This document shows positions 5,205 to 63,374 of a stretch of DNA of 64,000 bases, piece by piece. This DNA is from Eubacteriales bacterium. Its GTDB lineage: Bacteria; Bacillota; Clostridia; Oscillospirales; UBA644. The translations under genes and the position numbers were made by a program. Positions within the stretch are counted from its first letter, which is position 1. Each line of letters opens with the position of its first letter. The stretch is from positions 17,783 to 81,782 of the forward strand of contig JAZTWH010000026.1 in NCBI GenBank assembly GCA_045635765.1, in the 5' to 3' direction. Under the pieces are notes generated by a model. It was given only the letters and a program-made list of their open reading frames with translations, was not told the origin of the DNA and searched no databases.

Positions 5205-6545
5205 TTATCCGCAAATCTCAGGGGCTTCCTCTTTTTCTGCGGAGAGGTTTGTGATATTATGTTTCTTGCAAAAGGCGTCAAGGGTCTCCAAGGCCCGTTG
5301 GGACAAAAGGCCCTTGCGGTCTTTCTTTTTGACTTTTCCCTCCAACGGGGGGAGCAGTCCGAAGTTTACATTCATAGGCTGGAATTCCGTGACGGAGGGA
5401 TCCGACACGTAATGGGCTAAGGCACCAATGGCCGTTTCCCGCGGGAATTCCAAAGCGTCCCCCAGAAGGGCGTTCAGCCCTGCAACAAAGCCGGAGGAAG
5501 CGGATTCAATATATCCTTCCACGCCCGTTATCTGTCCTGCAAAGTACAGGTTTTCCCGGTTTCGCACCCGGTAGGTGGGGGTGAGCAGTTGGGGGGAATT
5601 TAAAAAAGTATTTCGGTGCATAACTCCGTATCGGACGAATTCCGCCTGTTCCAAGCCGGGGATCATTCGGAATACCCGGCGTTGCTCCGGCCAGGTCAGA
5701 TGGGTCTGAAATCCTACCATGTTGTACAGAGAGGATGCTCCGTTGTCCTTGCGTAGCTGTACCACGGCCTTGGGGAGTTTCCCCGTATGGGGGTCGATCA
5801 ATCCCACGGGCTTCAGGGGTCCGAATAACAGAGTTTCATACCCCCGGTAGGCCATGACTTCCACGGGCATACAGCCTTCAAAAACCTTGTTGTTTTCAAA
5901 TCCGTGGAGATGGGCGGTCTCAGCGGAGATCAGGGCCCGATAAAAGGCGTCGTATTCTTCCTCGGACATGGGACAGTTGACGTAGTCGGGGGTCCCTTTG
6001 TCATATCGGGAAGCAAGATACGCCTTGGACATATCAATGCTTTCCGCCGTGACGATGGGTGCCGCCGCATCAAAAAAGGAAAGACCCGCTCCGAATTGCC
6101 GGGCGATTTCTTCCGCCAGAGGGTCGGATGCCAAGGGGCCGGCAGCAATGACGGTCGGCTCGTCAAATTCCAGGGTGCAAACCTCTTCTTCCACCACGGT
6201 AATGTTGGGGTGGTTTCGGATTTTTTTGGTAACGTATTCGCAAAAGGCCTCCCGGTCCACGGCCAAAGCACCCCCTGCCGGGACTCTGGTGGCCACGGCG
6301 GCCTCCATTACGATGGACCCCATGCGGAGCAGCTCTTCTTTGAGCAGTCCGATGGCGTTCTGCAACCCCTCTGCCCGCAAAGAGTTGGAGCAGACCAGCT
6401 CACAAAAGGAGTCCGACGTATGGGCCGGGGACTTTTTTAGGGGCTTCATTTCGTATAGGGTTACCTTTGCCCCCCGTTGGGCACATTGCCAGGCCGCCTC
6501 GCAGCCCGCAAGGCCTGCTCCTACAACGGTCACGGAGTGGCTCAT
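5205..6545 (-). CDS. trmFO: Methylenetetrahydrofolate--tRNA-(uracil54-C5)-methyltransferase TrmFO
   Basis: [23 protein letters not shown]-binding N-terminus and full-length Gid/TrmFO-like body. A second in-frame ATG at 6632, created by an 87-bp duplication, carries an identical RBS and would add 29 aa. The track ORF to 6773 runs into topA and is not credible. Confidence 0.88.
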
Positions 6546-6644
6546 TGGGGCTCCTTCATTCTGCGTTGCACGTTGCAGTGCGGCGTCGCAGCCCGCAAGG
6601 CCTGCTCCCACAACGGTCACGGAGTGGCTCATTGGGACTCCTTC
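6471..6644 (-). repeat. 87-bp tandem duplication (2 copies) spanning the topA stop and trmFO start
   Basis: The 59-bp cores 6499..6557 and 6586..6644 differ at 2 positions. The remaining 28 bp per unit are more diverged (about half the positions match). Each unit contains GAAGGAG-N5-ATGAGCCACTCC. Confidence 0.9.
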
Positions 6645-8890
6645 TCCCCGTTGTCGTTTTTCTTGTAAGCCCGTTCGTATCCGCAGCCTTCGGTGACGCA
6701 GTTCAAGGTGCCGAAGTGACGGAAGAGGGTTTTTCCGCATTTGGGGCAGACCTCCGCCGTGGGAATATCCCAAGTGCGGAATCCGCAGGAAGCACCCTTT
6801 TCACAGGAATAGTACGTTTTTCCCTTTTGGGTCTTGCGTACCACCAAGGAGCTTCCGCAGAGGGGGCAGGTGCCGGGGGCTTTGGTGTAGACGGGTCTGG
6901 TGTTTTTACATTCGGGATAGCCGGGGCAGGCAAGGAATCGGCCGAAGCGGCTGACCTTGTAGACCATTTTACGGCCGCACAGCTCGCAGACCTCGTCGCA
7001 TTCTTCCACGGGTGTTTCTACCTTGCGGCGTTCCGTGTTACTTTCTGCCTTTTCTAGGGCGGCGGCAAAATCTCCGTAGAAATTCTGCATGACCTCCACC
7101 AGCGTCTTTTTGCCTTCTTCTACGCTGTCAAGCTGTTTTTCCATCTCTGCGGTGAAGGCGGAGTCCACGATATTGTTGAAGTTCTCGATCATCAGATCGG
7201 TGGTTACGATTCCCAGATTGGTGGGCTTGAGGGATTTTCCTTCCCGTTCCACGTAGTCCCGTTCAATGATGGTTCCCACGATGGGAGCAAAGGTGGAAGG
7301 ACGGCCGATGCCGTTTTCTTCCAAAGTCTTGATCAGGGACGCTTCGGTATAGCGGGAGGGAGGAAGGGTGAATTTCTGCTCCGACACGAGCTCCTTGAAA
7401 TCCAGGGGATCCCCCTCTTTCACGTCGGGGAAGGCCGAAGATTGTTCCGGGTCGTCGGAATAGTGATACAAACGGCTGTAGCCGTCAAAGACTTTTTTGG
7501 TATCAGAAGCCCGGAACAGGTACCCGGCGGCTTCGATCTCAATGCTTCTCACGTGCTGAACCACGGAGGCCATCTGACTGGCGGTGAACCGTTCCCAGAT
7601 CATCTTGTACAACCGATATTGATCGTGAGAAAGGCTTCCTTTTACGACCTCGGGGGTCAGATTGATGTCCGTGGGACGGATGGCTTCGTGGGCATCCTGG
7701 GCACCCTGCCGGGACTTGAAGACCCGGGGCGTTTTGGGATAATACGCCTCTCCGTAGGTGTTCAGAATATATTCCTTGGCGGCGGCCTTCGCTTCATCGG
7801 AAATCCGCAGAGAGTCGGTTCTCATATAGGTAATAAGACCGACGGGGCCATGGCCGACCACGTCAATACCTTCGTACAGGGTCTGGGCCACGGACATGGT
7901 CTTTTGGGGATGCATATTCAGATGAACGGAGGCTTCCTGCTGGAGGGCGGAGGTGGTGAAGGGAGGTGCGGGGTTTTTGTGCTTTTCCTGTTCCTTCAAG
8001 GAACGGACGGTGTAGTCCTTTCCTTCCAATTCTGCCCGAATCGCTTCATTTTCCGCGGCAGACGAAACGGTGATCTTCCCTCCATCGTTTCCAAAGAATC
8101 TGGCGGAATATTCCTTTTTGCCATTTCGGAAATGGGCGTCCAGATTCCAATACTCCTGAGGAACGAAGGCTTCGATCTCCCGTTCCCGGTCCACCACCCA
8201 ACGGGTGGCAACCGATTGGACCCGGCCGGCGGAAAGTCCGTATTTCACCTTGTGCCACAGGAAGGGAGACAGCTTATATCCCACGATCCGGTCCAAAACC
8301 CGGCGGGTCTGCTGGGAGGAAACCAAATTCTGATCAATGGCCCGGGGCTTTTGCATCCCCTCGGTGACTGCCTTTCGGGTGATTTCGTTAAAGGTCACCC
8401 GATTTTCGGCTCCTTCCTCCAATTCCAGCATCTGAGCCAAATGCCACGCAATGGCTTCTCCTTCCCGGTCAGGGTCCGTTGCCAGATAGACGGCCTTGCT
8501 GTTTTTCGCAGCGGCCTTCAGCTCCTTGAGAAGGGCGGCCTTCCCGTCCTTGCGGGGGACGATATACTCGGGCGTAAAGCCGTTTTCAATATCGACGCCC
8601 AAGCGAGAGGCAGGCAGGTCCCGGATGTGCCCCTTGGAGGACAGCACCTCGTACTTGCTTCCCAGATACTTTTTAATGGTTTTCGCCTTGGACGGGGATT
8701 CCACGATCAAAAGATTTTTGGTAGGATGGGGAGCCTTTTTGCTCCCGGCCTTTTTCTTCGCTGCAGGCTTTTTCGCTGCAGGCTTCTTTGCCGCAGGCTT
8801 TTTCGCCGTCGTTTTCTTTGCTGCAGATTTCGTTTCCGCAGACGTCTTCTGTGCGTCCTTTGCGGTGTTGTCGGTGGTTTTCGTTGCCAT
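6629..8890 (-). CDS. topA: DNA topoisomerase I with an N-terminal Lys/Ala/Pro-rich extension
   Basis: 753 aa. Toprim [13 protein letters not shown], active-site region LITYMRTDS, and three C-terminal Cys4 zinc ribbons. RBS AAGGAGA precedes ATG 8890, so the ~55-aa AKKP-repeat leader lies inside the CDS. Confidence 0.93.
8759..8833 (-). repeat. 15-bp coding tandem repeat (about 5 units) encoding (A)AKKP in the topA N-terminus
   Basis: Units cgctgcaggcttttt, cgctgcaggcttctt, tgccgcaggcttttt and so on, read directly on the + strand. Confidence 0.8.
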
Positions 8891-9068
8891 CGTAGTTCTC
8901 CTTTTTTGTTTGGGTAATTTTGCAATTATTTCCGGCGGAACGTGAATCCCAAAAAGGGATGCGGTCTGCCCGGAAAGCTCCGGTGCTTGCAGGAGCGGGA
9001 ATTATCGGGAAATAGATCGTCCCGTCCGCGGAGAAGTTCGTCCGCAAACAAGACACGTTTGGAAAAAC

Positions 9069-10286
9069 TTAACAACCAAATATTTCTTCCGGGGAGCCGG
9101 TCGGAGGAGCCCCCGGGCCCGTCGTTGATTTGGGCTTCGGCCTCAACGGTTCCGCCCCATTGTCCGGCTTAGTCTCGTTGACAGGGGATGTCCCGTTGTT
9201 CGGCCCAGTCCCGTTGCTCGGCTTAGTCCCGTTGTCCGGTTTAGTTCCGTTGCTCGGGTTCGTCCCGTTGACAGGGTGCGTTCCGTTGCTCGGGTTCGAC
9301 CCGTTGCTCGGGTGCGTTCCCCCGGGGGGCTGCCTTTTTCGGGATGAGGGGGATTTTGGGGATTGAGAGGTTTCCCGGTAGACCGGCTCGTACCGCACGG
9401 TGATGGGATTGATCCGGTCTGCGAAGCGGGGGAGAAATTCGTTAAATATATCATCAGGCTCGGTGCAAAAAACCGCACCTTGCTTAATGAGCTGATTGGT
9501 TCCGACATTGATTCGGTCGGTGGGGGCTGCGGGAATGGCAAAAAGCAGTCGGTTTTGTTCTATGGCATGGCGGGCGGTGTTCATGGATCCGCTTTTTTGA
9601 GGACACTCCACCACCAATACGCCTTCGGAGAGCCCGGAAATGATCCGGTTCCGCCGGGGAAAATTGGATCCTAAGGGAGGGGTTGAGGGAAGATATTCCG
9701 AAATCAGGCCCCCGTGTTCCCGCAACAAATTGTAAAGAGTCTGATTGTTCTTTGGATAAAGAATGTCAACTCCGCAGCCCAAAACGGCAAAGGAGGCCTT
9801 CCCTTTGATCAAGGATCCCTTGTGGGCGTAGGTATCAATGCCGTCGGCCATCCCGCTGATGATCTGAAAACCGGAGAGGGCCAAGGAACAAGCGAAGGAT
9901 GCGGCCATGGCGGCGGCGTTGGGACTGCATTTCCGGGTCCCGACCACTCCAATGGCCGGCTTTTCCGGATCGGGGAGATGCCCCAGAACAAATAAGGCGG
10001 GAGGCGGATCGTCGATCTCCCGAAGGAGGGGAGGATAGTCGGGATCGTAATAGCAAATCACGTCGATTCCCTTTTTTCGGCAATCGTCCAGCACCCGTTG
10101 GGCCGGCCGGAGATCTTTGTTCAGGAAGGGCCGAGAATCGGCCTCTCCCAAATGGGGAATCAGCTCCGCCTTCGTGGCGTGATAGGCTTCCTTCCCATTC
10201 ATCACCCGGATGAGTCGGTAGGTCTTTGCCGTTCCCTGTTTCCCTGCAAGGAGAAGCCACAGGGTATACAAAGCTTGGTCGGTCAT
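9069..10286 (-). CDS. dprA: DNA processing protein DprA (Smf) with a repetitive C-terminal tail
   Basis: GMADGIDTYAHKGSL Rossmann-like DprA core. ATG 10286 is preceded by AAAGGAGAG; the track start at 10301 lies inside that RBS. The C-terminal ~85 aa are low-complexity hexapeptide repeats. Confidence 0.85.
   Translation of the reverse strand: MTDQALYTLWLLLAGKQGTAKTYRLIRVMNGKEAYHATKAELIPHLGEADSRPFLNKDLRPAQRVLDDCRKKGIDVICYYDPDYPPLLREIDDPPPALFVLGHLPDPEKPAIGVVGTRKCSPNAAAMAASFACSLALSGFQIISGMADGIDTYAHKGSLIKGKASFAVLGCGVDILYPKNNQTLYNLLREHGGLISEYLPSTPPLGSNFPRRNRIISGLSEGVLVVECPQKSGSMNTARHAIEQNRLLFAIPAAPTDRINVGTNQLIKQGAVFCTEPDDIFNEFLPRFADRINPITVRYEPVYRETSQSPKSPSSRKRQPPGGTHPSNGSNPSNGTHPVNGTNPSNGTKPDNGTKPSNGTGPNNGTSPVNETKPDNGAEPLRPKPKSTTGPGAPPTGSPEEIFGC
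9147..9326 (-). repeat. 18-bp coding tandem repeat (about 10 units) encoding G-T-x-P-x-N in the dprA C-terminal tail
   Basis: Protein reads GTHPSN GSNPSN GTHPVN GTNPSN GTKPDN GTKPSN GTGPNN GTSPVN ETKPDN GAEP. Confidence 0.85.
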
Positions 10287-10322
10287 GGGCTCTCCTTTCA
10301 TAAATTTCTTTGGTCAGGTTGT

Positions 10323-10487
10323 CGTAGGGGTGGTGCCAAAGTTACGTCAGTCAGACCACCGTGGGGTTGGTGTAAAATGGTTACGTTAGCCGAGCCACCG
10401 TGGGGGTTGGTGTAAAATGGTTACGTTAGCCGGGCCGCCGTAGGGGTGGTGCCAAAGTTACATTAGTCGGGCCGCCGTAGGGGTGGC
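10323..10487. repeat. Intergenic 36-40-bp tandem repeat, about 4.3 units in two alternating variants
   Basis: Units start near 10323, 10359, 10398, 10438 and 10475. The A-type (ccgtaggggtggtgccaaagttacRt...) flanks two B-type units (ccgtgggg(g)ttggtgtaaaatggttacgttagcc...). There is no coding potential because the units are stop-rich. Confidence 0.85.
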
Positions 10488-10505
10488 TTTGATCGTTGCT
10501 TCCCG

Positions 10506-11246
10506 TTACTTTAAGAGATAAATCATAATGGAGGCGGCGGAGGCAGCGTTGAGGGAATTGATAGGGTTTTCCATGGGGATGTATACCCGTTGGTGGGCGG
10601 TCTCCAGGAGGGTCGGGGAGATCCCCTTCCCCTCGCTGCCGATGATTACGGCTCGTTTTTTATTGAAAATCCCTTGTTCCGGCGGGACGGCAGACGGATC
10701 TAAGGCCGTTGCGAGAACCGAAAATCCGTCCTTTTTCAGTTGGGATACGGTGGCGGCCAGGTCGGTGGATTGTTCGATATGGCAGGTGCGAAAGGCTCCG
10801 GCGGTGGACATGAGGGTTTTTGCGGACCACGGATTGGCACAGTCGGGGGAAAGAATTACGCCGAAGCCGAAGGCATAGGCCGTCCGAATAATGGTTCCCA
10901 CGTTTCCGGGGTCTTGCACTCCGTCAAGAAGCACCAGCTTCTCCGGCCGTTCCGTATCCTGCCGGGTTACGGTGCAGGCAATGGTTTGATTCGACACGGC
11001 GGTGCAGATCTTTTTCATGGCCTGGGGGGAGAGAAGGTAGACGGGGGTGGATTGGGGGAGCGTAGAAAGAAACCTTTCGTGCTTTTTTGGCTCCGTGGTA
11101 AAGGCCTCTTTGACGCAATGGGGAGGTAATTCCTCCACAAAACGGGTTCCCTCAATAAAAAACCGTTCCCGCAGGGGATGACTGCGGACCTTTGCGATTT
11201 CTTTCAGGTAAGGATTTGCGGCAGAGGTAATTTCCTTCAAAATCAT
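10506..11246 (-). CDS. TrmH/SpoU-family RNA 2'-O-methyltransferase
   Basis: 246 aa. SpoU motifs LDGVQDPGNVGTIIRTA and NSLNAASAASIMIY. Its start overlaps the upstream stop (ATGA). Confidence 0.8.
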   Translation of the reverse strand: MILKEITSAANPYLKEIAKVRSHPLRERFFIEGTRFVEELPPHCVKEAFTTEPKKHERFLSTLPQSTPVYLLSPQAMKKICTAVSNQTIACTVTRQDTERPEKLVLLDGVQDPGNVGTIIRTAYAFGFGVILSPDCANPWSAKTLMSTAGAFRTCHIEQSTDLAATVSQLKKDGFSVLATALDPSAVPPEQGIFNKKRAVIIGSEGKGISPTLLETAHQRVYIPMENPINSLNAASAASIMIYLLK

Positions 11247-11887
11247 TTGGGCATCCTCGCAATATTTTCAGACATCCCGATGACCATGATTGCGTCGTTT
11301 TCGCCGAAGGGACGGTCGGGGTGGAGGTTGGTGTCCAGAAAGTCCGACCCGTTCTTGCGAACGCCGATGACGTTGACGCCGCAATGGACCCGGATGTTCA
11401 GTTCCCGGAGAGATTTTCCCACCCAGGAGGATGGAATATTCACTTCTGCAATGGATTGATCTCCGCCTAAGGGGATGAAGTCCAGCAGGTCTGCGGAAAA
11501 TTTTCGTGCAATTCGGTCTCCCATATCTATTTCGGGGCAAACGACATAGTCGGCACCGATCCGGCGGAGCAGTCGGGAATGTTTTTCATCGTAGGATTGG
11601 CAGATTACGTGCTTGGCCCCCAATTCCTTTACCAGCGTGGTGACCAGAGCACTGGACTGAATGTCCTCGGCGATGGCCACGATGACGTGATCGTAATCAG
11701 GGATGTCCAGGGCCTGCAGGGTTTCCTCGTCCAGACAGTCTCCCTGACGGGCGTCTACCTCCCCGGAAATTCGGTCGACCTTTTCCAGATCGATGTCGAT
11801 GACCAGGACCTCTTCTCCCAATCGGACCAATTCCCGGGCCGTTTCCCGTCCGAATTGGCTCAATCCGATGATTAAAAACGAGTGCAT
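11243..11887 (-). CDS. ktrA: Trk/Ktr-type potassium uptake protein, NAD-binding (RCK) subunit
   Basis: 214 aa. N-terminal Rossmann IIGLSQFGRETARELVRLGEEVLVIDID plus a TrkA_C-like C-terminus. Adjacent to the membrane subunit. Confidence 0.8.
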   Translation of the reverse strand: MHSFLIIGLSQFGRETARELVRLGEEVLVIDIDLEKVDRISGEVDARQGDCLDEETLQALDIPDYDHVIVAIAEDIQSSALVTTLVKELGAKHVICQSYDEKHSRLLRRIGADYVVCPEIDMGDRIARKFSADLLDFIPLGGDQSIAEVNIPSSWVGKSLRELNIRVHCGVNVIGVRKNGSDFLDTNLHPDRPFGENDAIMVIGMSENIARMPK

Positions 11888-11899
11888 AATTTCAACTCC

Positions 11900-13270
11900 T
11901 TATCCGATCAGAATATTGCCCTGAGGATATCGCAGGGTGTTTTTCCGCTTGCGTCGGTCGGTGAGAAGTGCGTAGGAAATGGTCAACATTCCCACCCTTC
12001 CCGAAAACATCAGAAGCATCAAAAGAATTTTGGAAAAAGCCGTCAGGGTGGGGGTTACGGAAAGGGAAAGTCCCACCGTTGCAAAGGCTGAGGTACATTC
12101 GTACAACGCGGGCAAGAATCCCAAGTCCGCCTCCGCCACGTTCAGAGCAAAGGCACAGGCCAAAATGGCGAGGAAGGGAAAAAACACCAAGACAAAGGCC
12201 CGGTAAACCAAATCGGAGGAAAGACGTCGTTTGAGCAACACCGCGTCCTTTTGTCCCCGAAAGACCGAACGGAGAGCCGCCGCCAACACCGCCACGGTCG
12301 TTACCTTGACACCCCCGCCGGTAGAACCCGGGGAGGCTCCGATGAACATCAGCACCATGGTGAGAACCTGGCCCGCCTCCGTCATGGCCCCAAGGTTCAC
12401 GGTGTTCATTCCCGCGGTCCGGGGGGATACCGATTGGAACAGGGAGGCCAAAATCTTTTCTTTCCAGGGCAAGTCCCCGAGGGTTTCCGGGTTGGCGAAT
12501 TCCAGCAAAAAGATCAGCAGGGCCCCGAGGACGGTCAAAGCCCCGGAACCGATCAGGACGGTTTTGGAGAACAAGGTGAGCTGTTTCCAGCGGTGCTTGG
12601 TATATAAGTCTTCCCAAACCAGAAAGCCCATTCCTCCCAGGACGATCAATGTCATGACCGTCAGATTTACCGTCAGATCACCGGTGTAGGCGTTGAGGGA
12701 AGAAAAGGGGCTTTGCTGTCCCATTAAATCAAATCCGGCGTTGCAGAAGGCGGAAACGGAGATGAAAATTCCTCTCCAGATTCCTCCGGCCCATCCGTAT
12801 TCCGGAATCAATCGCAGGGAAAGGATCAATGCACCGGCCCCTTCAAAGGCTGCGGTCCCCGCAAGAACGTGCTTTAAGGTGCGGGCGGCGGTCTTGTAAT
12901 CCTCCGTATTCAGGGATTCGGCCATCTGCTTGCGATTGGAAAGGGAGGAATCCCCCCGAAGAAACAGGATCAACGCCGACCCCAGGGTCATAAATCCCAG
13001 CCCTCCGATCTGAATCATGCAAAGGATGACTCCTTGGCCGAAAAAGGACCAATGGGTCGCGGTGTCGTATACCACCAATCCCGTAATGCAGGTGGCGGAG
13101 GTGGCCGTGAAGAGGGAATTGAGGAAGGGGGTCGCCCTTCCGTCGGCCGAGGATACGGGGAGGGTGAGCAACAACGCCCCCGCAAGGATGATGAGGGAGA
13201 AGCCCAGGATCAAAAGTCGGTACAGGTTTATTTTCTTCCGCTTTTCTTTTACGGCAGGAATCCGTTTCAC
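11900..13270 (-). CDS. ktrB: Trk/Ktr-type potassium transporter membrane subunit
   Basis: Four pore-loop-like motifs (TATCITGL, CNAGFDL, SPRTAGMN, GSTGGGVKV). The likely start is GTG 13270, 9 nt after AAAGGAGGG; the track TTG at 13294 lies upstream of that RBS. Confidence 0.8.
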   Translation of the reverse strand: MKRIPAVKEKRKKINLYRLLILGFSLIILAGALLLTLPVSSADGRATPFLNSLFTATSATCITGLVVYDTATHWSFFGQGVILCMIQIGGLGFMTLGSALILFLRGDSSLSNRKQMAESLNTEDYKTAARTLKHVLAGTAAFEGAGALILSLRLIPEYGWAGGIWRGIFISVSAFCNAGFDLMGQQSPFSSLNAYTGDLTVNLTVMTLIVLGGMGFLVWEDLYTKHRWKQLTLFSKTVLIGSGALTVLGALLIFLLEFANPETLGDLPWKEKILASLFQSVSPRTAGMNTVNLGAMTEAGQVLTMVLMFIGASPGSTGGGVKVTTVAVLAAALRSVFRGQKDAVLLKRRLSSDLVYRAFVLVFFPFLAILACAFALNVAEADLGFLPALYECTSAFATVGLSLSVTPTLTAFSKILLMLLMFSGRVGMLTISYALLTDRRKRKNTLRYPQGNILIG

Positions 13271-13307
13271 GCAGCCCGTCCCTCCTTTGGGCAAAATTAA
13301 CTACTAT

Positions 13308-13336
13308 ATAATAGCACTAAAAATTGTTTCTGTCAA
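13308..13336 (-). promoter_or_regulatory. Sigma-A-type promoter for ktrB-ktrA
   Basis: Minus strand reads TTGACA-17 bp-TATTAT, about 35 nt upstream of the RBS. Confidence 0.6.
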
Positions 13337-13539
13337 GTCCCTTGGGAAGACCAAAAAAAATCTTACGGGAATTTTACCTTTCCGCAACATTCTGTTTGAG
13401 AAAAATTTGCCGTTTTTTTCATTATCCCCCCGAATTCTGTCTCCTGTTCGGAGAAAAGTCACACATTTGCCGAAAAGAGTTGCGGAGTTTATGGTAGAAT
13501 CTTTATGTGTGTGCGTATAGAATCTTTGGAGGGAGCACT

Positions 13540-14721
13540 ATGGTAACGATAAAAGAAGTTAAGACGAAAGGGGATCTTCGTCGTTTCGTGGATTATCCCA
13601 ATCAACTGTATCGAGATGTTCCTCAATTTGTTCCGCCTCTGCGTTCCGACGATTTGTCCGATTGGAACCGGAAGGAAAATCCCGCCTTTGAATATTGCGA
13701 TGCAAAATGCTGGCTGGCCCTTCGAGAGGGAAAAATCGTGGGCCGCATCGGTGCCATTTTAAGTCGGAAAGCCAACGAAAAGTGGAACACCTCCCGGATG
13801 CGGTTTACGCAGGTGGATTTTATCGACGATCCCGAGGTCTCCGAGGCCCTGTTTTCCACCGTGGAGCAATACGCACGGTCGATGGGGTGCTCTCAGGTTC
13901 AGGGGCCCTTGGGCTTTACCGACATGGACCGGGAAGGAATGTTGGTGGAAGGCTTCGACCGCCGGAATATGTTTATTACGTATTATAACCACCCCTATTA
14001 CAACGAGCATCTGACCCGCCTGGGGTACGAAAAGGACGTAGACTGGATCGAGTATCTGATTCAAGTCCCCGAGGAAGATTCTCCCCAGATCGAAAAGATC
14101 CGCAGAGTTGCCAAATACATTACCCGCCACGGACAGTATCGGGTGGTAAAACTGAAAAGCCGTCGGGAGTACGGTCCCTACATCGAAAAGGTATTTCAGT
14201 TGGTCAATCAGGCGTATTCCCATTTGTACGGGACCGTGGATCTGTCCGACTCGCAGATCCGGCGGTACGCCAAAAAATTTATCCCCATGATTTCCCCCGA
14301 TTACATCTGCTTTGTGGAGGACGATAAGGGCGAGCTGGTGGCCTTCGGAATCTCTGCCCCCTCCCTGGCCGACGCGTTCAAAAAGAGCAACGGCAGACTG
14401 TTTCCTTTCGGTTGGGTGGGAGTTCTGAAAGCGTTGAATCAAAACGACGCGGCAGATCTGTTCCTCATCGCCGTCCGGCCCGATCTGCAAGGGAAGGGCG
14501 TAAATGCGGTGATTTTGAACCACATTTACAATCTTTACCGAAAGAACGGAATCCGGTGGGTGGAGACCGGCCCTCAGCTGGAGACCAATTCCAAAATTCT
14601 GGGCCAGTGGGAGATGTTCGACAAGCAGCAGCACAAACGCCGCAGATGTTACGTCAAAACTTTCTCGCCCGAAACCGTATCGGAGAAAACCCCCGAGCCG
14701 TCCCTTGTTTCCCAAGGTTGA
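13540..14721 (+). CDS. Large (~390 aa) GNAT-family acyltransferase-like protein
   Basis: ATG 13540 follows GGAGGGA. The C-terminal region AVRPDLQGKGVNAVILNH resembles the GNAT acetyl-CoA motif (Q/RxxGxG/A). Family assignment is from memory only. Confidence 0.55.
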   Translation: MVTIKEVKTKGDLRRFVDYPNQLYRDVPQFVPPLRSDDLSDWNRKENPAFEYCDAKCWLALREGKIVGRIGAILSRKANEKWNTSRMRFTQVDFIDDPEVSEALFSTVEQYARSMGCSQVQGPLGFTDMDREGMLVEGFDRRNMFITYYNHPYYNEHLTRLGYEKDVDWIEYLIQVPEEDSPQIEKIRRVAKYITRHGQYRVVKLKSRREYGPYIEKVFQLVNQAYSHLYGTVDLSDSQIRRYAKKFIPMISPDYICFVEDDKGELVAFGISAPSLADAFKKSNGRLFPFGWVGVLKALNQNDAADLFLIAVRPDLQGKGVNAVILNHIYNLYRKNGIRWVETGPQLETNSKILGQWEMFDKQQHKRRRCYVKTFSPETVSEKTPEPSLVSQG

Positions 14722-14855
14722 AGCCGTTCCTTGTATCTCAAGAATAAAGCCGGCCCTCGTGCCCCAAGGATAAACTGTCCCTTGCGGCCCAAAGTTGAAC
14801 TCGCCCCTTGATCTCAATGCTGAAATTATTCCTTATATCTCAAGGTTGAACGTCC
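14700..14855 (+). repeat. Six to seven degenerate 23-27-bp tandem units, each a small hairpin, beginning inside the last codons of the GNAT gene
   Basis: Units gtcccttgtttcccaaggttgaagcc, gttccttgtatctcaagaataaagcc, ggccctcgtgccccaaggataaact, gtcccttgcggcccaaagttgaact, cgccccttgatctcaatgctgaaatta, ttccttatatctcaaggttgaac. The first unit contains the TGA stop (14719..14721). Confidence 0.8.
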
Positions 14856-14883
14856 CAAAAACAATTAAAAACAGAACGACCCG

Positions 14884-14919
14884 ATTGCCGACACGAAATT
14901 TTGTGCCGGCAATTTTTTT
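14884..14919 (+). terminator. Intrinsic terminator of the GNAT transcript (after the hairpin-repeat array)
   Basis: attgccgacac gaaatttt gtgccggcaat forms an 11-bp stem with 1 mismatch, followed by TTTTTTT. Confidence 0.75.
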
Positions 14920-14989
14920 GCCCTTTTTGAATTGTCCTGTTTATGGGATATAAATTGTGATATACTGTAATTACAAAAGGAGGATGAAT

Positions 14990-15484
14990 ATGGCCTTTGA
15001 AATTGTTTCGGCTCCGTTGCTGTCCCTGCCTGCGGAAGCGGTGGTCAACCGGGCAAACAGCGGATTGCAGTATGCTTCGGGACTGTGCGGAGAAATTTTT
15101 GACGCGGCGGGGAAACTTCCGCTGCAACGAGCCTGTGTAGCCATCGGTTCCTGTTCCGTGGGAAATGCGGTGGTGACCGCGGGCTTCGGATTAAAAGCAA
15201 AATATATTATCCACGCCGTTCCTCCCCGTTGGTGCGGCGGAAAGCACGGGGAGGACAAGCTTCTTTGGGATTGCTACACGTCAGCCCTCCGGCTGGCCTC
15301 CCGCCTCGGGGTCGGGTCCCTTGCCTTCCCCCTCTTGTCGGAAGGTCTTTGCGGGTACCCCGTCGATCGGGGTCTTGCGGTGGCAAAAAAAGCGATCCTC
15401 AGCTTCCCTGCTTCGGAAGACATGAAGGTGTATCTTTCCCTCCCCGGTCAATCCAAAAAAATGCCTCTGTCTCCAAGATCATAA
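14990..15484 (+). CDS. Macro-domain protein (ADP-ribose / O-acetyl-ADP-ribose hydrolase-like)
   Basis: 164 aa; ATG follows AGGAGGA. Macro-domain-like motifs: AVVNRANSGLQ, GNAVVTAGFGL, IIHAVPP and SLAFPLLSEG. Confidence 0.75.
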   Translation: MAFEIVSAPLLSLPAEAVVNRANSGLQYASGLCGEIFDAAGKLPLQRACVAIGSCSVGNAVVTAGFGLKAKYIIHAVPPRWCGGKHGEDKLLWDCYTSALRLASRLGVGSLAFPLLSEGLCGYPVDRGLAVAKKAILSFPASEDMKVYLSLPGQSKKMPLSPRS

Positions 15485-15590
15485 ATTTTTATCTGTCGCT
15501 TCCGTCGTAGGCCGGCAAATACGTTTCGGCTGACTCGCGGCCGTACTGCAGAAATATTTTTGCTTAAATACTGGAGATTTTACGTTGCAG

Positions 15591-15633
15591 AAAAAAAACT
15601 GCACCCGAAAGGTTCGTAGCCTTTGGGGTGCAG
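15591..15633 (-). terminator. Intrinsic terminator after metA
   Basis: Minus strand reads ctgcaccc...gggtgcag followed by TTTTTTTT. Confidence 0.8.
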
Positions 15634-15657
15634 AGAATGGGTTGCGGCAGTTTTGTG

Positions 15658-16575
15658 TTACTTAATTTCGGAAATATCGTAGGGCGTAGTCTGATAGACG
15701 AAATAGTTCAGCCAGTTGGAATACAGCAGATTTGCATGGGAACGCCAACGGACGATGGGGGTCTTTTGGGGGTCGTCGTCGGGGAAATAATGCTTCGGGA
15801 TGTTAGGATGGATTCCCGCATCCAGATCCCGGAGGTATTCGTTTTTCAGAGTTTCTCCGTCGTATTCCGAGTGACCCGTGATGAAGATCTGCTTTCCGTT
15901 GGGGGTGGTTACGGCGTAGACCCCGGCCTCGGGGGAGGACGCAAGGATCCGTAACGTGTCTACGGCTTCAATATCCTCTCTGCGAACGGTGGTGTTTCGG
16001 GAGTGAGGGACCCAGAATTTGTCGTCGAAGCCCCGCAGTAGAATGGATCGGGGGTAATCCTTGATATGCTCAAAAACCCCGGACATTTTTTCGGGAAGGG
16101 GGACCTTGTCGATGCCGTAATGATAGTACAGTCCGGCCTGGGCTCCCCAGCAGATATGGAAGGTGGAGGTCACGTTGGATTTGGACCACTCCATGATCTG
16201 ACACAGCTCCTCCCAGTAATCCACTTCCTCAAAGGGAAGATTTTCCACGGGTGCCCCGGTAATCACCAGTCCGTCGAATTTTTGATGCTTTACGTCATCA
16301 AAGGTTTTGTAAAATTCGGCCAAATGGCTTGCGGACGTATTTTTGGACTGATGGGACTTGGTGTGGATCAGCTCCAGTTGCACCTGCAGGGGGGAGTTGC
16401 CCAAAAGACGGGAGATCTGGGTCTCGGTGGCGATCTTGGTGGGCATCAGATTCAAAAGCAGGATCTTGAGGGGACGAATATCCTGGGTGATGGCCCTCGT
16501 TTCGGTCATCACGAAAATATTCTCATTTTCCAGCGTTTTTACCGCCGGGAGTTTGTTGGGAATGCGAATGGGCAT
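15658..16575 (-). CDS. metA: Homoserine O-acyltransferase (MetA family)
   Basis: 305 aa from [23 protein letters not shown], with LNLMPTK and GLVITGAP motifs. The track ORF extends upstream into metY and is not credible. Confidence 0.88.
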
Positions 16576-16597
16576 TTTCAACCTCCGAAAGGGTATT

Positions 16598-17887
16598 TTA
16601 GTCGATGGAATCCAGGGCTTGTGCCAGGTCGTCGATGAGATCCCGGGCATCCTCGATTCCGCAGGAATAACGGACCAGGTCGGGGGAGACTCCGGCGGCC
16701 AGCAATTGCTCGTCATTCATTTGACGGTGGGTGGCCGAGGCGGGATGCAGACAGCAGGTCCGGGCATCGGCCACGTGGGTCTCAATGGCGGCAATCTTCA
16801 GTTCTTTCATGAATTTTTCTGCTCCCTTGCGGCCTCCTTTGACTCCGAAGGAGACTACGCCGCAGGATCCGTTGGGAAGATATTGACGGCACAGATCGTA
16901 ATCCTCGTCTCCGGGAAGACCGGGATATTTGACCCAGGATACTTTTTCATGATTCTGCAAAAATTCTGCAACGGCCTGCCCGTTTTCGCAATGGCGTTTC
17001 ATCCGAACGTGGAGGCTTTCCAGTCCCAAATTGAGCAGATAGGCCGATTGAGGGGCGGGTGTGGCTCCCAAGTCCCGCATCATCTGGGCCGTAGCCTTGG
17101 TAATATAAGCTCCTCCTTTGCCGAAGCGTTCGGCATAGGTGATCCCGTGATAGCTTTCGTCGGGAGTGCAAAGACCGGGGAATTTCTCTGCCCGGGCCAT
17201 CCAGTCGAAGTTCCCGCTGTCCACAATACAACCGCCGACGGCAGAGCCGTGGCCGTCCATATATTTGGTGGTGGAATGGGTCACGATGTCTGCACCCCAT
17301 TCAAAGGGTCTGCAGTTGACGGGAGTGGCAAAGGTGTTGTCGATGATCAGAGGGACCCCGTGGGCGTGGGCGGCGTCGGCAAAGCGACGGATGTCCAGAA
17401 CCCGGAGGGAGGGGTTGGAAATGGTTTCTCCGAATACCGCCTTGGTATTGGGACGGAAGGCTCCTTCCAGCTCTTCCGCAGAGCAGTCGGGAGCCACGAA
17501 GGTAAATTCAATGCCCATCTTCGCCATGGTAACGGCAAAGAGGTTGAAGGTTCCTCCGTAGATGGCCGAGGAGGCCACCACGTGATCCCCGGTCTCCGCA
17601 ATGTTAAAGACGGCAAAAAAGTTTGCCGATTGGCCGGAGCAGGTCAGCATGGCGGCGGTTCCGCCTTCCATTTCGCATATTTTTTTTGCAACCGTGTCGC
17701 AGGTGGGATTCTGAAGGCGGGAATAAAAATACCCGCTGGCCTCCAGGTCAAAAAGCTTGCCCATTTCCTCGCTGGTGGCATATTTAAAGGTCGTGCTTTG
17801 AATGATGGGAATCTGCCGGGGTTCTCCGTTTTGGGGAGTATATCCTCCCTGAACGCACTTGGTTCCGATACCGTGTTCTTTCATCAT
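16598..17887 (-). CDS. metY: O-acetylhomoserine aminocarboxypropyltransferase (sulfhydrylase), PLP-dependent
   Basis: 429 aa. Cys/Met-metabolism PLP family with [11 protein letters not shown] (PLP lysine). Immediately upstream of metA. Confidence 0.88.
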
Positions 17888-17904
17888 TGATTCCTCCTAA
17901 GGGA

Positions 17905-18840
17905 TTATTGGAAAATAAAGGGTAAAAACAGTTCAGACATAATAGGAATGGTGACCACGCAAAGCAGGGTGGAGATCAGCACCGTATTGGCCGCCGGCTT
18001 TTGTCCCTGCCCGATCAGCTCGGAAAGGGATTGCAGGATGCTGGCACAGGGGCAACAGGACAGTAAAAAGATAGAGGCCTTGACGTAATGTGCCACCGGG
18101 AGAAGAAGCATCACCGCTAACGTGAACAAGGGGAATAGAATCATTTTGGCCCCGGAGGCCAACAGGGCTCTCCAATCGGTGGCAAGATCCCGCAATTTCA
18201 CGGTGGCAAGTCGCATCCCAAGAATGATCATGCACATGGGTGTAGACATTCTCCCCAGCAGTTGGATCGCTTCCTCTACCATGGGGGGAAACTCCCATCC
18301 AAACAGGAACATGGGGTAGGCGATAACCATGGAAAGGACCAAAGGGATGGTCAGCAGCTTTTGGGGACGGATAAATTTTTTGTCCCTCGAAATGACGAAC
18401 AACCCCAACGTCCAGGATACGATGTTCATAGTCAGGGAAAAAATCTGAGAAAAGACTGCGGCAAAGGGATACTCCGGTAAAAAGTGCTCCAAAAGGGGAA
18501 CCCCGAAATAGCCCACGTTGCCCAAGGCCGTGGCAACGATGAACACCCGCCACCGTACGTTTTCAAGCTTCCGGTGCAGGATCAGCCGGGCAATGAGAAT
18601 CACGGCCAGCATCAAAAACAACGTGGCGGCAAAACAAAGCCAAATCATGCCGTGAAGCTCGGGAGAATACTCCGCCCGGGAAAAAGAATACAAGGAAAGA
18701 CAGGGGGAGCAAACGTACAAAAGAAGCTTTGCGAAGGCCGGAATAGCTTCTTCCTTTACGGCCTTTGTCTTGATAAACAGAAATCCGGGAATGGCGTACG
18801 CCAGCATGGTCACCACCCGGATCAGCGTAGCGATAAACAT
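17905..18840 (-). CDS. AEC (auxin efflux carrier) family permease
   Basis: About 10 TM segments with typical AEC-like N- and C-terminal halves. ATG 18840 follows AAAGGA; the track TTG at 18873 is less likely. Lies 17 bp upstream of metY. Confidence 0.7.
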   Translation of the reverse strand: MFIATLIRVVTMLAYAIPGFLFIKTKAVKEEAIPAFAKLLLYVCSPCLSLYSFSRAEYSPELHGMIWLCFAATLFLMLAVILIARLILHRKLENVRWRVFIVATALGNVGYFGVPLLEHFLPEYPFAAVFSQIFSLTMNIVSWTLGLFVISRDKKFIRPQKLLTIPLVLSMVIAYPMFLFGWEFPPMVEEAIQLLGRMSTPMCMIILGMRLATVKLRDLATDWRALLASGAKMILFPLFTLAVMLLLPVAHYVKASIFLLSCCPCASILQSLSELIGQGQKPAANTVLISTLLCVVTIPIMSELFLPFIFQ

Positions 18841-18888: not shown

Positions 18889-19067
18889 GGACCCCGCAAC
18901 GAAAACTTCAGAAAATACAGACCATATACATATGCAACGAAAGCTTCAGAAGAAGACTTCCGCGTGCATAAATGCAAGGGATCCTGCAACGAAAACTCCA
19001 GAAAATGCAGGCCGTGTGTTGATGCGGCGAAGGGCTTCGGGAGAGATAATAATCAGAGTTTTCGTTC
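18889..19067. repeat. Three direct copies plus one inverted copy of a ~16-nt motif (GCAACGAAAACTYCAG) in the leader of the AEC-metY-metA operon
   Basis: Direct copies on the + strand at 18896..18911, 18934..18949 and 18986..19001. The inverted copy cagagttttcgttc is at 19054..19067, overlapping the HAD gene stop codon (19066..19068). Confidence 0.75.
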
Positions 19068-34697: not shown

Positions 34698-34754
34698 GTT
34701 ATGTCACCTTTTATTTTCGCACTCGCGTGCGGCGATTTATTTAATTTATTTTAT

Positions 34755-34783
34755 ATTATAACATAACCCGAAGAAAAAAGCAA
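34755..34783 (-). promoter_or_regulatory. Sigma-A-type promoter for pheS-pheT
   Basis: Minus strand reads TTGCTT-17 bp-TATAAT. The leader is only ~55 nt. Confidence 0.6.
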
Positions 34784-34822
34784 GGTGCAAGCCGTACTTT
34801 TTTATGACAATTCATCGGATTT

Positions 34823-34924
34823 TTCTCACATCAACGCTGCACACATGGTCAAAAGCCCTCGGAGCGTAAGATGATTCTCACGTCAACGCCGCACACATGG
34901 TCAAAAGGTCCCGGAGCTTGAGAT
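34823..34924 (-). repeat. 52-bp tandem duplication of the 3' end (including the stop) of the M14-like gene
   Basis: 34875..34924 (CDS end, ...LLTMCAALT*) versus 34823..34872 (would read ...LLTMCAALM*). About 43 of 50 positions are identical. Confidence 0.85.
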
Positions 34925-35654
34925 AATTCTTTTGATCTTCCTCGGGAAGACGCAGCTCTACGGTCTTAATCCCCCGGTCGGTCAGCCATTGCAGAGCCGT
35001 TCCGTCGGTGTCTTGGGCGGGGGAGACGGGAAGGGAGGCGTATTGACCCAAGAAAACAGCTTCCCGAAGCTCCTTGGGCGTGGCCTTTTCGGGATAATGC
35101 AACGCCCTTTCTCCCCATCGAAGAAGGACGGCTCCGGCGGGAGGATTTTGCCGGATCCGGGCGGTCAAAGCTCTGACCTCCGGCTCGCTTTCGGGGAAGG
35201 GGCCCAAATCCGTTCTTTGAGGGTCTGCAGTTCTCATTTTGATCCAGTTTGCATTAAAGTTTCGGTTTAAATCTATGCCTCTTGCATTGGTGTGCATAAG
35301 AGAATGTTTTGTTGAGTTTTTCAGTAAATTTTGGTTTTCTATTAAACCGTTTTGGTTTATATTAAAAGCGTCTGGATTTAAGACGGGAATCAGTCGGATT
35401 TTGCATTTGTTTTTTAAAATTTTAAGGTCAAAATCTCCCAAAATTCCCCCGTAATATTCTCCTTCCGCCAAATGGTGCCGGAAGCGGAAAAGCATCTCGG
35501 ACAGGGGACGGTCTTGGGGGGTAAATCCCGAGAGAAACAGAATCGATTTGTCCCGGTCTCCCCAGGGATACTCTTCCAGTGCCTTTCCCGAGAGGGTGCG
35601 ACCGAAAACGATAGGCGGTTCCGTCGGATATATTTCCTGAAAATTCATTTCCAT
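34878..35654 (-). CDS. M14 (zinc carboxypeptidase)-like protein apparently lacking the zinc ligands
   Basis: 258 aa. M14-type NPD..N and NARGIDLNRNF motifs are present. The HxxE region reads SGFTPQD, and the third-ligand His position reads LLRWGE. Confidence 0.55.
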   Translation of the reverse strand: MEMNFQEIYPTEPPIVFGRTLSGKALEEYPWGDRDKSILFLSGFTPQDRPLSEMLFRFRHHLAEGEYYGGILGDFDLKILKNKCKIRLIPVLNPDAFNINQNGLIENQNLLKNSTKHSLMHTNARGIDLNRNFNANWIKMRTADPQRTDLGPFPESEPEVRALTARIRQNPPAGAVLLRWGERALHYPEKATPKELREAVFLGQYASLPVSPAQDTDGTALQWLTDRGIKTVELRLPEEDQKNYLKLRDLLTMCAALT

Positions 35655-47190: not shown

Positions 47191-47195
47191 TCCAA

Positions 47196-50542: not shown

Positions 50543-50549
50543 GGCTGAA

Positions 50550-53305: not shown

Positions 53306-53332
53306 TGTTATACGGTCAGCCCAAATAGATAC

Positions 53333-54420: not shown

Positions 54421-54448
54421 AAAAGCAGTATTTTCTTGAGGTGATCTT

Positions 54449-55882: not shown

Positions 55883-55927
55883 AGCCTTGATAAACAGATT
55901 CCTGTTACAAAGCACAGAATCAATGAA

Positions 55928-55977
55928 AATAGCCATGACCGCAGGCCGTGCCGGTGGGTCATGGCTATTGATGTTTT
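55928..55977. terminator. Shared terminator between the convergent malQ (+) and trkH (-) genes
   Basis: aatagccatgac ... gtcatggctatt forms a 12-bp stem, followed by gatgtttt. Confidence 0.7.
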
Positions 55978-55980
55978 CCA

Positions 55981-58787: not shown

Positions 58788-58820
58788 AAGGGAAGCCTTC
58801 CTTTCCTTGTCGTTCTGTTT

Positions 58821-58849
58821 ATTATAACATAGTTTTTTTCGATTTTCAA
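58821..58849 (-). promoter_or_regulatory. Sigma-A-type promoter for trkA-trkH
   Basis: Minus strand reads TTGAAA-17 bp-TATAAT. Confidence 0.6.
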
Positions 58850-58930
58850 CCGTCTTAACAAAAAAGACAAGGTTTTCGGAGGAATTCCCTGGCTTTTTTC
58901 GGCTTTTTTCCGACTTTTGTGTGGGAGATA

Positions 58931-58959
58931 TTGACGGAAGCGGCGTTTCGTGCTATAAT
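58931..58959 (+). promoter_or_regulatory. Sigma-A-type promoter for the methyltransferase gene
   Basis: TTGACG-17 bp-TATAAT with TGc upstream of the -10. Confidence 0.6.
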
Positions 58960-59001
58960 AAATGATGACTTTATTAAGATTTTAAGACGGAGACAGAAAT
59001 C

Positions 59002-59856
59002 ATGTGGATAGCAGACGGCTGGAAGGATTTTCAGGTTCTGGATGCCTCGGGCGGGGAAAAATTGGAGCGATGGGGAAAATATACCTTTGTCCGCCCCGAC
59101 CCTCAGGTGATTTGGAACACCCCCCGGGAACGTTCGGAATGGAAGAGACCCAGTGCCAGTTATTCCCGTTCCTCCTCCGGCGGAGGCCATTGGAACGGTG
59201 CGGAGATTCCCATGTTCCGCATCGGATATCAGGATCTGATTTTTCAGATCAAGCCCATGTCCTTTAAGCATACCGGCCTTTTCCCCGAGCAGGCCGTAAA
59301 CTGGGATTGGGCTCGGGAGCAGATCCGCAAGTCCGGAAGGGAAGCCCCCCAGGTCCTGAACCTCTTTGCCTACACGGGAGGGGCTTCGGTGGCTTGTGCG
59401 AAGGAAGGAGCCAAGGTCTGCCACGTGGACGCTTCCAAGGGAATGGTTGCGTGGGCGAAGGAAAACGCCCAGGCCTGCGGCTTGGACAATATCCGCTATA
59501 TCGTGGACGATTGTGTAAAATTTGTCCAGCGGGAGATCCGGCGGGGAAGACGGTACGACGGACTGATCCTCGACCCTCCCTCCTACGGCAGAGGCCCTGA
59601 CGGAGAAATTTGGAAGCTGGAAACGGAGCTGTACGGTCTTTTGGATCTTTGCGTTCAGGTTCTTAATGACGATCCTCTGTTTTTAATCCTGAATTCTTAC
59701 ACTACCGGCCTTTCCGCCGGATGTATGGAATATATGCTGGGCTGTACCGTTGCCCGTCGGTTCGGGGGAAAGGTTACGGCTTCCGAGATCGGGCTCCCGG
59801 TGGGGGACACCGGGTATTGCCTGCCCTGCGGTGCCACAGCCCGCTGGACGAAGTAA
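59002..59856 (+). CDS. Class I SAM-dependent (RlmI/RlmK-like) RNA methyltransferase
   Basis: 284 aa. SAM motif VLNLFAYTGGASVA, HVDASK and LILDPPSYGRG. Confidence 0.7.
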   Translation: MWIADGWKDFQVLDASGGEKLERWGKYTFVRPDPQVIWNTPRERSEWKRPSASYSRSSSGGGHWNGAEIPMFRIGYQDLIFQIKPMSFKHTGLFPEQAVNWDWAREQIRKSGREAPQVLNLFAYTGGASVACAKEGAKVCHVDASKGMVAWAKENAQACGLDNIRYIVDDCVKFVQREIRRGRRYDGLILDPPSYGRGPDGEIWKLETELYGLLDLCVQVLNDDPLFLILNSYTTGLSAGCMEYMLGCTVARRFGGKVTASEIGLPVGDTGYCLPCGATARWTK

Positions 59857-60000
59857 CGAACCACCTAACGAAGCAATCAAACCACAAGGCCGCAACGCGA
59901 CGACGCAACCAGCAACGAAGATGTGTCGTAACCACGCGATGACGCGACGGTGCGATAAGCAAAAGCAAGGAAGCAATGAAACAACGAAGAAACCAAGCGA
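59846..60000 (+). repeat. T-depleted A/C-rich spacer built from degenerate ACGAAG-containing units, starting at the methyltransferase stop codon
   Basis: acgaagtaacgaaccac (contains the stop codon TAA) is followed by acgaagcaatcaaaccac. Later units include agcaacgaagatg and aacaacgaagaaacc. T is very rare over ~150 nt. Confidence 0.6.
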
Positions 60001-60052
60001 CAGAGTGCCGGGTTTCGGATCCCGGATTGATTCCCCGAAAGGAGGGAGATTT

Positions 60053-62585: not shown

Positions 62586-63310
62586 AATACCTGATCCGCC
62601 TGTCCTTTGTGGGAACGGCCTACTGCGGATGGCAGACCCAGAAAAACGGACCTTCCGTCCAGGCCTGCGTGATGGATGCCCTGCGGAGGATCTTCGGCAC
62701 CGTCTCGGAATTTTCCGGGTGTAGCCGCACCGATTCGGGGGTCCATGCACTGGATTTCTGCGTATCCTTTACCGTCCCCGGGCAGATGCCTTGTGAAAAG
62801 CTCGTTGCGGCCATGAATGCAACCCTCCCCAGAGATATTTCCGTCCATTCCGCCCGCTGTGTTCCCGAGGATTTTCACGCCCGATACAGCGTAACCAAAA
62901 AAGAGTATTTGTATCGCATCCATACGGCACCCGTTCGCTCTCCCTTTTGGGAAGAACGGGCGTGGCACCGGCCGGGGGAATATGATATTTCCCTCTTGAA
63001 TGAGGCCGCCGCACCCCTCCGGGGAACCCATGACTTTTGTTCCTTTATGGCTTCGGGCAGTAAAATCAAGGATTGCACCCGCACCGTTTTTGACGCCCAT
63101 TTTGAGCAAGGAGACGAGACCTTGAATTTTTACGTCTCCGCCGACGGATTTCTCTACAATATGGTTCGGATTATGGTGGGAACGCTGATGGACGTCCCCC
63201 GCCGTTATTCTCCCCGAGACCTGCAGGAAATCCTGGAAGCCGCAGACCGTGCCCGGGCCGGAATGACGGCTCCCCCCCACGGCTTGTACCTGCACCGTGT
63301 GGAATATTGA
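62582..63310 (+). CDS. truA: tRNA pseudouridine(38-40) synthase
   Basis: GTG 62582 overlaps the ecfT stop (GTGA). LSFVGTAYCGWQTQ and the catalytic-Asp motif RTDSGVHA. Conserved ecfAAT-truA synteny. Confidence 0.9.
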   Translation: MKYLIRLSFVGTAYCGWQTQKNGPSVQACVMDALRRIFGTVSEFSGCSRTDSGVHALDFCVSFTVPGQMPCEKLVAAMNATLPRDISVHSARCVPEDFHARYSVTKKEYLYRIHTAPVRSPFWEERAWHRPGEYDISLLNEAAAPLRGTHDFCSFMASGSKIKDCTRTVFDAHFEQGDETLNFYVSADGFLYNMVRIMVGTLMDVPRRYSPRDLQEILEAADRARAGMTAPPHGLYLHRVEY

Positions 63311-63374
63311 TAAATTGTATCTGAATCGCGTGGAATATTGATAAATTGTATCTGAATTGCGTGGAATATTGATA
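63299..63374 (+). repeat. 31-bp tandem repeat (about 2.5 copies) starting in the last codons of truA
   Basis: gtggaatattgataaattgtatctgaatcgc (63299..63329, contains the stop TGA), a copy at 63330..63360 with one mismatch, and a partial copy at 63361..63374. Confidence 0.9.

Follow-up and report, generated by a model that had tools for sequence, protein, structure and literature searches.

Tandem duplications around stop codons in a Clostridia genome: probable slippage duplications, with placement probably filtered by selection

Introduction

In bacteria, tandem duplications are reported to arise mainly through microhomology-mediated events, which also seed repeat arrays (bioRxiv 10.64898/2026.02.28.708716). 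In the essential genes of haploid yeast, surviving duplications keep the reading frame or lie near the 3' end (PMC8639346). In prokaryotes, tandem repeats are enriched just outside coding sequences (CDS), on both flanks, and are rare inside them, a distribution read as permissiveness or regulation (Cho and Wright, NAR 2025; PMC12418385). No paper singling out repeat units that span a stop codon was found by our literature search. Such units recur in the DNA considered here, a stretch of 64 kb from an Eubacteriales bacterium (GenBank assembly GCA_045635765.1, contig JAZTWH010000026.1, positions 17,783 to 81,782), referred to below as the window, in which the tail of several genes, stop codon included, is recopied directly downstream of the gene. 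A first-pass annotation had reported such copies at five loci and had suggested a process aimed at gene termini, for which it knew of no described mechanism. The copies stand as reported at four of the five loci and take another form at the fifth, a methyltransferase gene. The idea of a process that targets stops was not supported, since arrays devoid of a stop occur in the same window and the excess at stops reaches only P = 0.036-0.13 once gene-disrupting placements are excluded. As for the mechanism, microhomology-mediated tandem duplication was already described, and the enrichment of repeats at CDS borders was known (PMC12418385).

The window resembles the microhomology systems in several respects. 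Its copies, of 8-87 nt, are head-to-tail, locus-specific and single in relatives, with later expansion; the youngest event has an arm-core-arm-core-arm layout, and selection would remove frame-breaking events. It departs from them by a density that is high for one lineage and by non-coding examples most of which include a stop, a feature not singled out in those studies. As in the prokaryotic survey, repeats cluster at the borders of CDS and few lie within them, but in the window the 3' flank dominates instead of both flanks being affected, and the unit itself holds the CDS tail and its stop.

Other described systems also place repeated DNA at gene ends. The mycobacterial interspersed repetitive units (MIRUs) of Mycobacterium tuberculosis, reportedly described by Supply et al. 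in 1997, are said to be intercistronic minisatellites with units of 40-100 bp, oriented as the genes of the operon and variable in copy number. They form one dispersed family, with a common consensus at many loci. The arrays of the window share with them the location of tandem units between operon genes, next to stop or start codons, whereas each array derives from its own neighbouring gene and has nothing in common with the others. At the borders of integrated elements, attL/attR duplicates at the ends of tRNA, tmRNA or protein genes flank kilobases of element DNA with an integrase. There too, an intact gene is followed by a further copy of its own last bases, whereas the copies in the window abut directly and are often more than two.

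Window, relatives and scans

The window has 52-56% G+C and a GC skew that is positive across its whole length. A map of 62 genes was built from codon usage. Pfam confirms TopA, TrmFO, a GNAT acetyltransferase, an M14-like peptidase, an S-adenosylmethionine (SAM) methyltransferase, TruA and a NUDIX protein, and additionally identifies a SpoU methylase, DprA and a HAD hydrolase. The closest relatives are uncultured Clostridia from ruminant gut samples, syntenic with the window and about 78-84% identical in DNA. Relative L001 spans window positions 81-18524, relatives L003, L004-L007 and L008 span the region from the methyltransferase gene to truA, and L010 spans the M14 region.

Tandem repeats were found with Tandem Repeats Finder (TRF) and a repeat finder. 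In a 3' scan of 60 CDS, their last 45-60 nt were aligned to the next 200-500 nt; in its 5' counterpart, the first bases of each CDS were compared with the preceding sequence, both with shuffled controls. Only four of the 60 gene ends stand out in the 3' scan, namely topA/trmFO, GNAT, M14 and truA (z = 6 to 25; 0/200 shuffles), and at these the CDS tail and its stop codon are recopied directly downstream. No gene start stands out in the 5' scan of the same CDS set. A weaker hint that had been noted after the NUDIX gene is at chance level (z = 1.8-2.6).

Duplications that include gene ends

The duplication at the junction between the topA stop and the trmFO start lies on the reverse strand at 6472..6653 and consists of two copies of 87 nt (z = 6-11 in the 3' scan). 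Copy 1 (6645-6559) contains the TGA stop of topA (6631-6629) and, overlapping it, an ATG (6632-6630), while copy 2 (6558-6472) contains a second ATG at 6545-6543 and ends in CAACGGGG at 6479-6472. The same 8-nt microhomology CAACGGGG stands directly before copy 1 (6653-6646), at a distance of 174 nt, that is 2 x 87, and a degraded central version, CAACGCAG, is found at the end of copy 1. This event, taken as the youngest of the window, has the textbook arm-core-arm-core-arm layout of a microhomology-mediated tandem duplication. The two copies are identical at 71/87 positions overall and 90% identical over 77 nt, and the last third of copy 1 is far more diverged than its first 59 nt (14/28 vs 57/59 identical). 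The earlier description of 87 bp x2 with a core of 57/59 is confirmed. Because the topA tail makes up only about 17 nt of the unit, the remainder being the ribosome-binding site, the start codon and the first 23 codons of trmFO, this is a junction duplication rather than the duplication of a pure 3' end. Relative L001 has a single copy of the junction, with the same ATGA stop/start overlap (spacer of -4 bp). The unit of 87 nt equals 29 codons and is in frame with trmFO. A start at the first ATG (window 6543-6632, reverse strand) would extend the N-terminus of TrmFO by 29 residues, with a second GAGLAG dinucleotide-binding motif.

At truA, a 3' array on the forward strand (63284..63411) comprises four units of 31-33 nt, three copies plus a degenerate fourth (TRF period 31 nt, 91%; 3' scan z = 10-12), where a 31-bp repeat had been announced. 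Copy 1 is coding, ending in ...LYLHRVEY* with TGA at 63308-63310, and matches the conserved C-terminus of TruA. Copies 2 and 3 differ by one mismatch, and the array lies directly upstream of the preserved ribosome-binding site of a DUF5711 gene. Three sister species have one truA tail followed by a 21-bp spacer that holds the ribosome-binding site of the next gene. A 26-mer from truA searched in Joint Genome Institute (JGI) metagenomes gave no match. The TruA of another relative (P0010; L008 10001-10861, also L009) carries an in-frame insertion of about 44 residues in the region of the catalytic domain, made of DAPISAQ-like repeats with a 15-nt tandem period in the DNA.

The GNAT acetyltransferase gene is followed on the forward strand by an array at 14696..14856, with six units of 25-26 nt (14696-14849) and a 7-nt partial unit, detected by TRF and by the 3' scan (z = 6.1-6.6); the earlier count of about 25 bp x6 agrees with it. 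Unit 1 is formed by the last codons of the gene and its TGA at 14719-14721. Each of the six units is closed by TGA or TAA at the same position, the units being about 60-77% identical to each other, and an intrinsic terminator lies directly 3' of the array. In L001, which lacks the array, the end of the CDS (AGCAGTTCCCGTATAA) occupies the position of unit 1 and is unit-like, and the alignment, read directly, shows that the sequence past the array is homologous to the sequence after the L001 stop.

On the reverse strand, the end of the M14-like carboxypeptidase gene is duplicated at 34818..34930 (52 nt x2.17; 3' scan z = 23-25) with an identity of 83-85%, close to the roughly 86% first given. 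Copy 1 encodes the conserved C-terminus ...MCAALT*, with the stop at 34880-34878, and copy 2 adjoins the conserved upstream region of pheS. The C-terminus ...CAALT is present in 11/11 homologues, so that the coding copy matches the conserved end. A single copy of the tail, followed by the highly conserved pheS upstream region, is found in L010. Since only 3 of the 8 differences in the non-coding copy are of synonymous type, its divergence fits neutral decay. The array has an imperfect microhomology arm of 9 nt. The pheS upstream spacer itself (window 34698-34830, reverse strand, vs L010 10800-10930) is about 90% identical, whereas the neighbouring M14 proteins are only 63% identical; it contains a promoter-like pair TTGCAC...TATAAT and a small hairpin, and no Rfam family matches it at gathering score.

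The array after the SAM methyltransferase gene (59848..60008, forward strand) is decayed and consists of about 20 units of 8 nt, ACGAAGYA-like and poor in T (8-nt autocorrelation z = 5.9, with harmonics at 16 and 24). Unit 1, ACGAAGTA, corresponds to the last two codons of the gene plus the TA of its stop (TAA at 59854-59856), and the copies are almost decayed. The array announced at this locus is real, but its unit is not the one proposed: a 19 bp x2 arrangement was dropped (3' scan z = -0.2) in favour of the 8-nt periodicity. The spacer measures 36-38 bp in relatives vs 196 bp in the window, and the array of about 160 nt accounts for most of this widening.

Arrays away from stop codons

Other arrays of the window, all of them missed in the first-pass annotation, do not include the end of a CDS. 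On the reverse strand, the interval that separates the stop of the SpoU methylase gene from the start of dprA is occupied at 10323..10486 by a purely intergenic array of 37-40 nt x4.3, detected by TRF, whose inner copies are 93% identical. The spacer is 204 bp long in the window vs 22 bp in L001 (genes 9250-9990 and 10013-11176). Within genes, in-frame repeats are present on the same strand in the Lys/Ala-rich N-terminal tail of TopA (8739..8843; 15/30 nt, (AKKPA)n) and in the DprA linker (9147..9320; about nine PSNGT-like units of 18 nt), both shorter or absent in L001.

The C-terminal winged-helix domain of DprA (window 8891-9068, reverse strand, 3' of the annotated stop at 9069-9071) is found as fragments in three frames with a premature stop, whereas it is intact in L001. 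The 3' part of dprA thus appears to be decaying via several frameshifts, just downstream of the 18-nt repeat expansion.

A borderline case lies 3' of the HAD hydrolase gene (18889..19031, reverse strand), with three degenerate copies of about 34 nt, 38 and 52 nt apart; its autocorrelation (z = 3.4) is at the shuffle threshold. An 11-nt complement between the end of this gene and the downstream repeats was dropped, as no folding signal accompanies it (z = -1.2).

Origin in this lineage, ages and density

The arrays arose in this lineage, because the sister junctions hold single copies and short spacers, of -4, 21, 22 and 36-38 bp at the topA/trmFO, truA, SpoU/dprA and methyltransferase junctions, respectively. 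For truA and the methyltransferase, the single-copy state was established against L003, L004 and L006, and the gene table of L008 has the same tight spacers. The comparison with sister genomes that had been proposed for polarising the duplications therefore gives them as derived.

Copy identities are graded, from truA (one mismatch) through SpoU-dprA (93%), topA/trmFO (82-90%), M14 (83-85%) and GNAT (about 60-77%) to the almost decayed methyltransferase array. Such differing identities indicate that the events differ in age and that the process recurs, in agreement with the recurrence over time claimed at the outset (identity from 97% down to nearly decayed).

What sets the window apart is the density of arrays, several-fold above that of relatives. 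TRF reports six arrays (period at least 15, score at least 79) in the 64 kb, the 87-nt pair not being counted, whereas no array with a score of at least 60 was detected in 98.7 kb from four relative species. At equal rates, the probability that all six arrays fall in the window is about 0.004, by our own calculation from the TRF counts. This excess could reflect a repair defect or weak selection in the lineage.

The same 3' and 5' scans applied to 84 gene ends in relatives yielded one case, mntP. In the sister genomes (L004 4257-4700, L005 2457-2735, L006 1-220), the last 27 nt of mntP, stop included, recur 125 nt downstream, and between the two copies lie 98 nt of unrelated DNA that contain a separate terminator-like hairpin. 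In L004 there is a further copy of 125 nt, broken by a stretch of N, and this extra copy relative to L005 and L006 may be a copy-number polymorphism or a scaffolding artefact. The 98-nt insert was rejected as a dispersed element since it is present at the mntP locus alone, and other weak 3' matches in the sisters were set aside as low-complexity chance matches.

Nature of the units

The units of different loci are unrelated, all pairwise comparisons giving z < 3, and the SpoU-dprA unit has no occurrence outside its own array within the window. A mobile or dispersed element of the repetitive extragenic palindrome (REP), miniature inverted-repeat transposable element (MITE) or MIRU type was rejected on these grounds. 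The absence of a common sequence points to a process and not to a mobile element, as had been concluded from the first reading of the sequence. Copies are head-to-tail and abut with nothing between them; without unique spacers, they do not have the layout of a clustered regularly interspaced short palindromic repeat (CRISPR) or neo-CRISPR array. A structured RNA or riboswitch was likewise rejected, with no Rfam match at gathering score and folding z values of +1.5, -1.0 and +0.4 vs shuffled sequences.

Periods are divisible by three only where the repeat is translatable (15/30, 18/36 and 87 nt), whereas those found after stops are 8, 26, 31 and 52 nt, a pattern that suggests a general duplication process under selection. 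Partial units close both the M14 array (2.17 copies) and the GNAT array (six units plus 7 nt), in the arm-core-arm form predicted by the microhomology model. The microhomology arm is clear at topA/trmFO and, owing to decay, is not recoverable at truA and the methyltransferase. Arrays occur on both strands under a GC skew of constant sign, without head-on or co-directional bias, and a replication-transcription conflict acting through gene orientation was discarded for this reason.

Stop-codon overlap

Four of the eight arrays overlap a stop, which gives P = 0.014 vs uniform placement; all these figures concern loci selected because they showed the pattern. A survivorship null was constructed by collapsing the arrays to the earlier map, 93% coding and with many spacers below 25 bp, and by excluding placements internal to CDS. 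Under this null, which is generous as it counts the duplication of a ribosome-binding site, a start codon or a promoter as harmless, 26-53% of the remaining placements include a stop for units of 26-87 nt; the corresponding fraction for the 8-nt unit, about 9%, is an estimate and not a count. Obtaining at least four of five or six arrays then has P = 0.059-0.134, and the addition of the methyltransferase array (5/7) gives P = 0.036. The overlap with stops that the first-pass annotation had asked to see compared with expectation is thus present against uniform placement, within the window, but marginal once gene-disrupting placements are excluded. With sister spacers of -4 to 38 bp, a duplication of 26-87 bp cannot leave both genes intact unless it contains a gene end.

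Explanations for the arrays

The arrays are, with a probability of about 0.7, ordinary microhomology-mediated tandem duplications due to replication slippage, whose placement was filtered by selection, and not the product of a new mechanism aimed at gene ends. Slipped-strand mispairing during replication would make short tandem duplications, repeatedly and in this one lineage, and some of them would later expand into multi-copy arrays. Selection would be the main determinant of the observed placement, the genome being about 93% coding. A duplication of 20-90 bp would persist if its period is divisible by three and it lies inside a disordered protein tail, if it is purely intergenic, or if the new junction lies among the few neutral bases that separate a stop from the next signal. 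A junction of the latter type would leave the gene intact and add an inert copy of the CDS tail with its stop, and would thereby mimic an anchoring on stop codons. We infer that the mutational step is slippage and that the placement results from selection, not from mutational targeting.

Several observations weigh against this explanation. Five of the seven non-coding arrays include a stop and none includes a start alone, and three arrays have their right-hand boundary 0-9 nt from the stop. The asymmetry between stops and starts is nominally significant (P = 0.036), and its sole account is the argument that copies of start regions or promoters are more harmful than copies of CDS tails. The excess of arrays in the lineage (six vs none in relatives) lacks an explanation, microhomology is clear at one event only, and the sample is 64 kb of this genome. 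The prevalence of stops over lone starts, the boundaries 0-9 nt past the stop, the P value of 0.036 under a lenient null and the extra stop-containing duplicate at mntP in a sister species speak for mutational targeting, in which duplications would arise preferentially at gene 3' ends through template switching at forks stalled by terminating transcription complexes, R-loops or terminator hairpins. This is nevertheless unlikely: arrays also lie inside CDS tails and in spacers off stops, no bias of strand or replication orientation is seen, the truA and methyltransferase genes end at tight operon junctions without a terminator, the GNAT array is upstream of its terminator hairpin, and the loci are few and were chosen after the fact. 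No better odds are given to a duplication process biased towards the few bases past stops, for example through template switching at sites where the replication machinery encounters terminating transcription or translation complexes, perhaps together with a repair defect of the lineage that increases the rate.

A selected function of the copies, as longer intercistronic spacers that uncouple translation, as back-up stops in all frames or as binding sites for proteins or RNA, would agree with the widening of 21-38 bp spacers to 117-204 bp at three operon junctions, with the TGA or TAA kept at the same position in 6/6 GNAT units and with the in-frame trmFO duplication. It is nonetheless quite improbable, as the units have no common motif, neither excess RNA structure nor an Rfam match, non-coding copies that decay like neutral sequence, to the point that older arrays are almost unrecognisable, and relatives that function without them. 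An artefact of assembly or polishing has to be considered for a metagenome-assembled genome, the more so as an aldo/keto reductase gene is frameshifted by 1 nt at an A8 homopolymer, as in typical long-read assembly errors, and a run of N lies inside a repeat on one sister scaffold. Artefactual duplicates would be identical, whereas copies in the window differ by 3-40%, form arrays with as many as six units and are decayed to various degrees; the translations of coding arrays are plausible low-complexity linkers, and almost every other gene, compared with the sister proteins, is intact in one frame, which makes an artefact very unlikely. There is just as little reason to expect recombination scars, where an incoming allele or a small integrating element would have taken the place of the gene tail, with the resident tail remaining downstream, as at attL/attR borders. 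The 27-nt CDS-end copies of sister mntP, which flank 98 nt of unrelated sequence with its own terminator hairpin, have this appearance, but the copies in the window abut head to tail in arrays that reach four to six copies, no integrase is nearby, and the non-coding M14 copy carries no foreign-allele signature beyond neutral decay.

Implications

If slippage and selection are indeed responsible, the window would be a small-scale natural case of selection deciding where slippage duplications persist, namely after stops, in disordered protein tails and in spacers. It illustrates how tight operon junctions can gain new intercistronic DNA. It also calls for caution, because repeats seemingly anchored to a feature can be a survivorship effect. 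If mutational targeting were true instead, gene 3' ends would be real mutational hotspots that continually spawn new 3' spacers.

Neighbouring genes

Apparent gene decay is also seen at one end of the window, where an aldo/keto reductase gene with a 4Fe-4S domain (65-1154, reverse strand) is split into two open reading frames (ORFs) by a 1-nt insertion at the A8 tract, near 737-757, whereas L001 has one ORF. Either the gene is a real pseudogene, or the homopolymer was misread in sequencing. Weak selection could underlie the decay of both dprA and this gene, a sequencing error being the alternative for the latter. Beside a macro-domain gene, the interval 15265-15645 measures about 380 bp in the window vs about 2.5 kb in L001 (2885-5398), where it holds an ORF of 703 residues.

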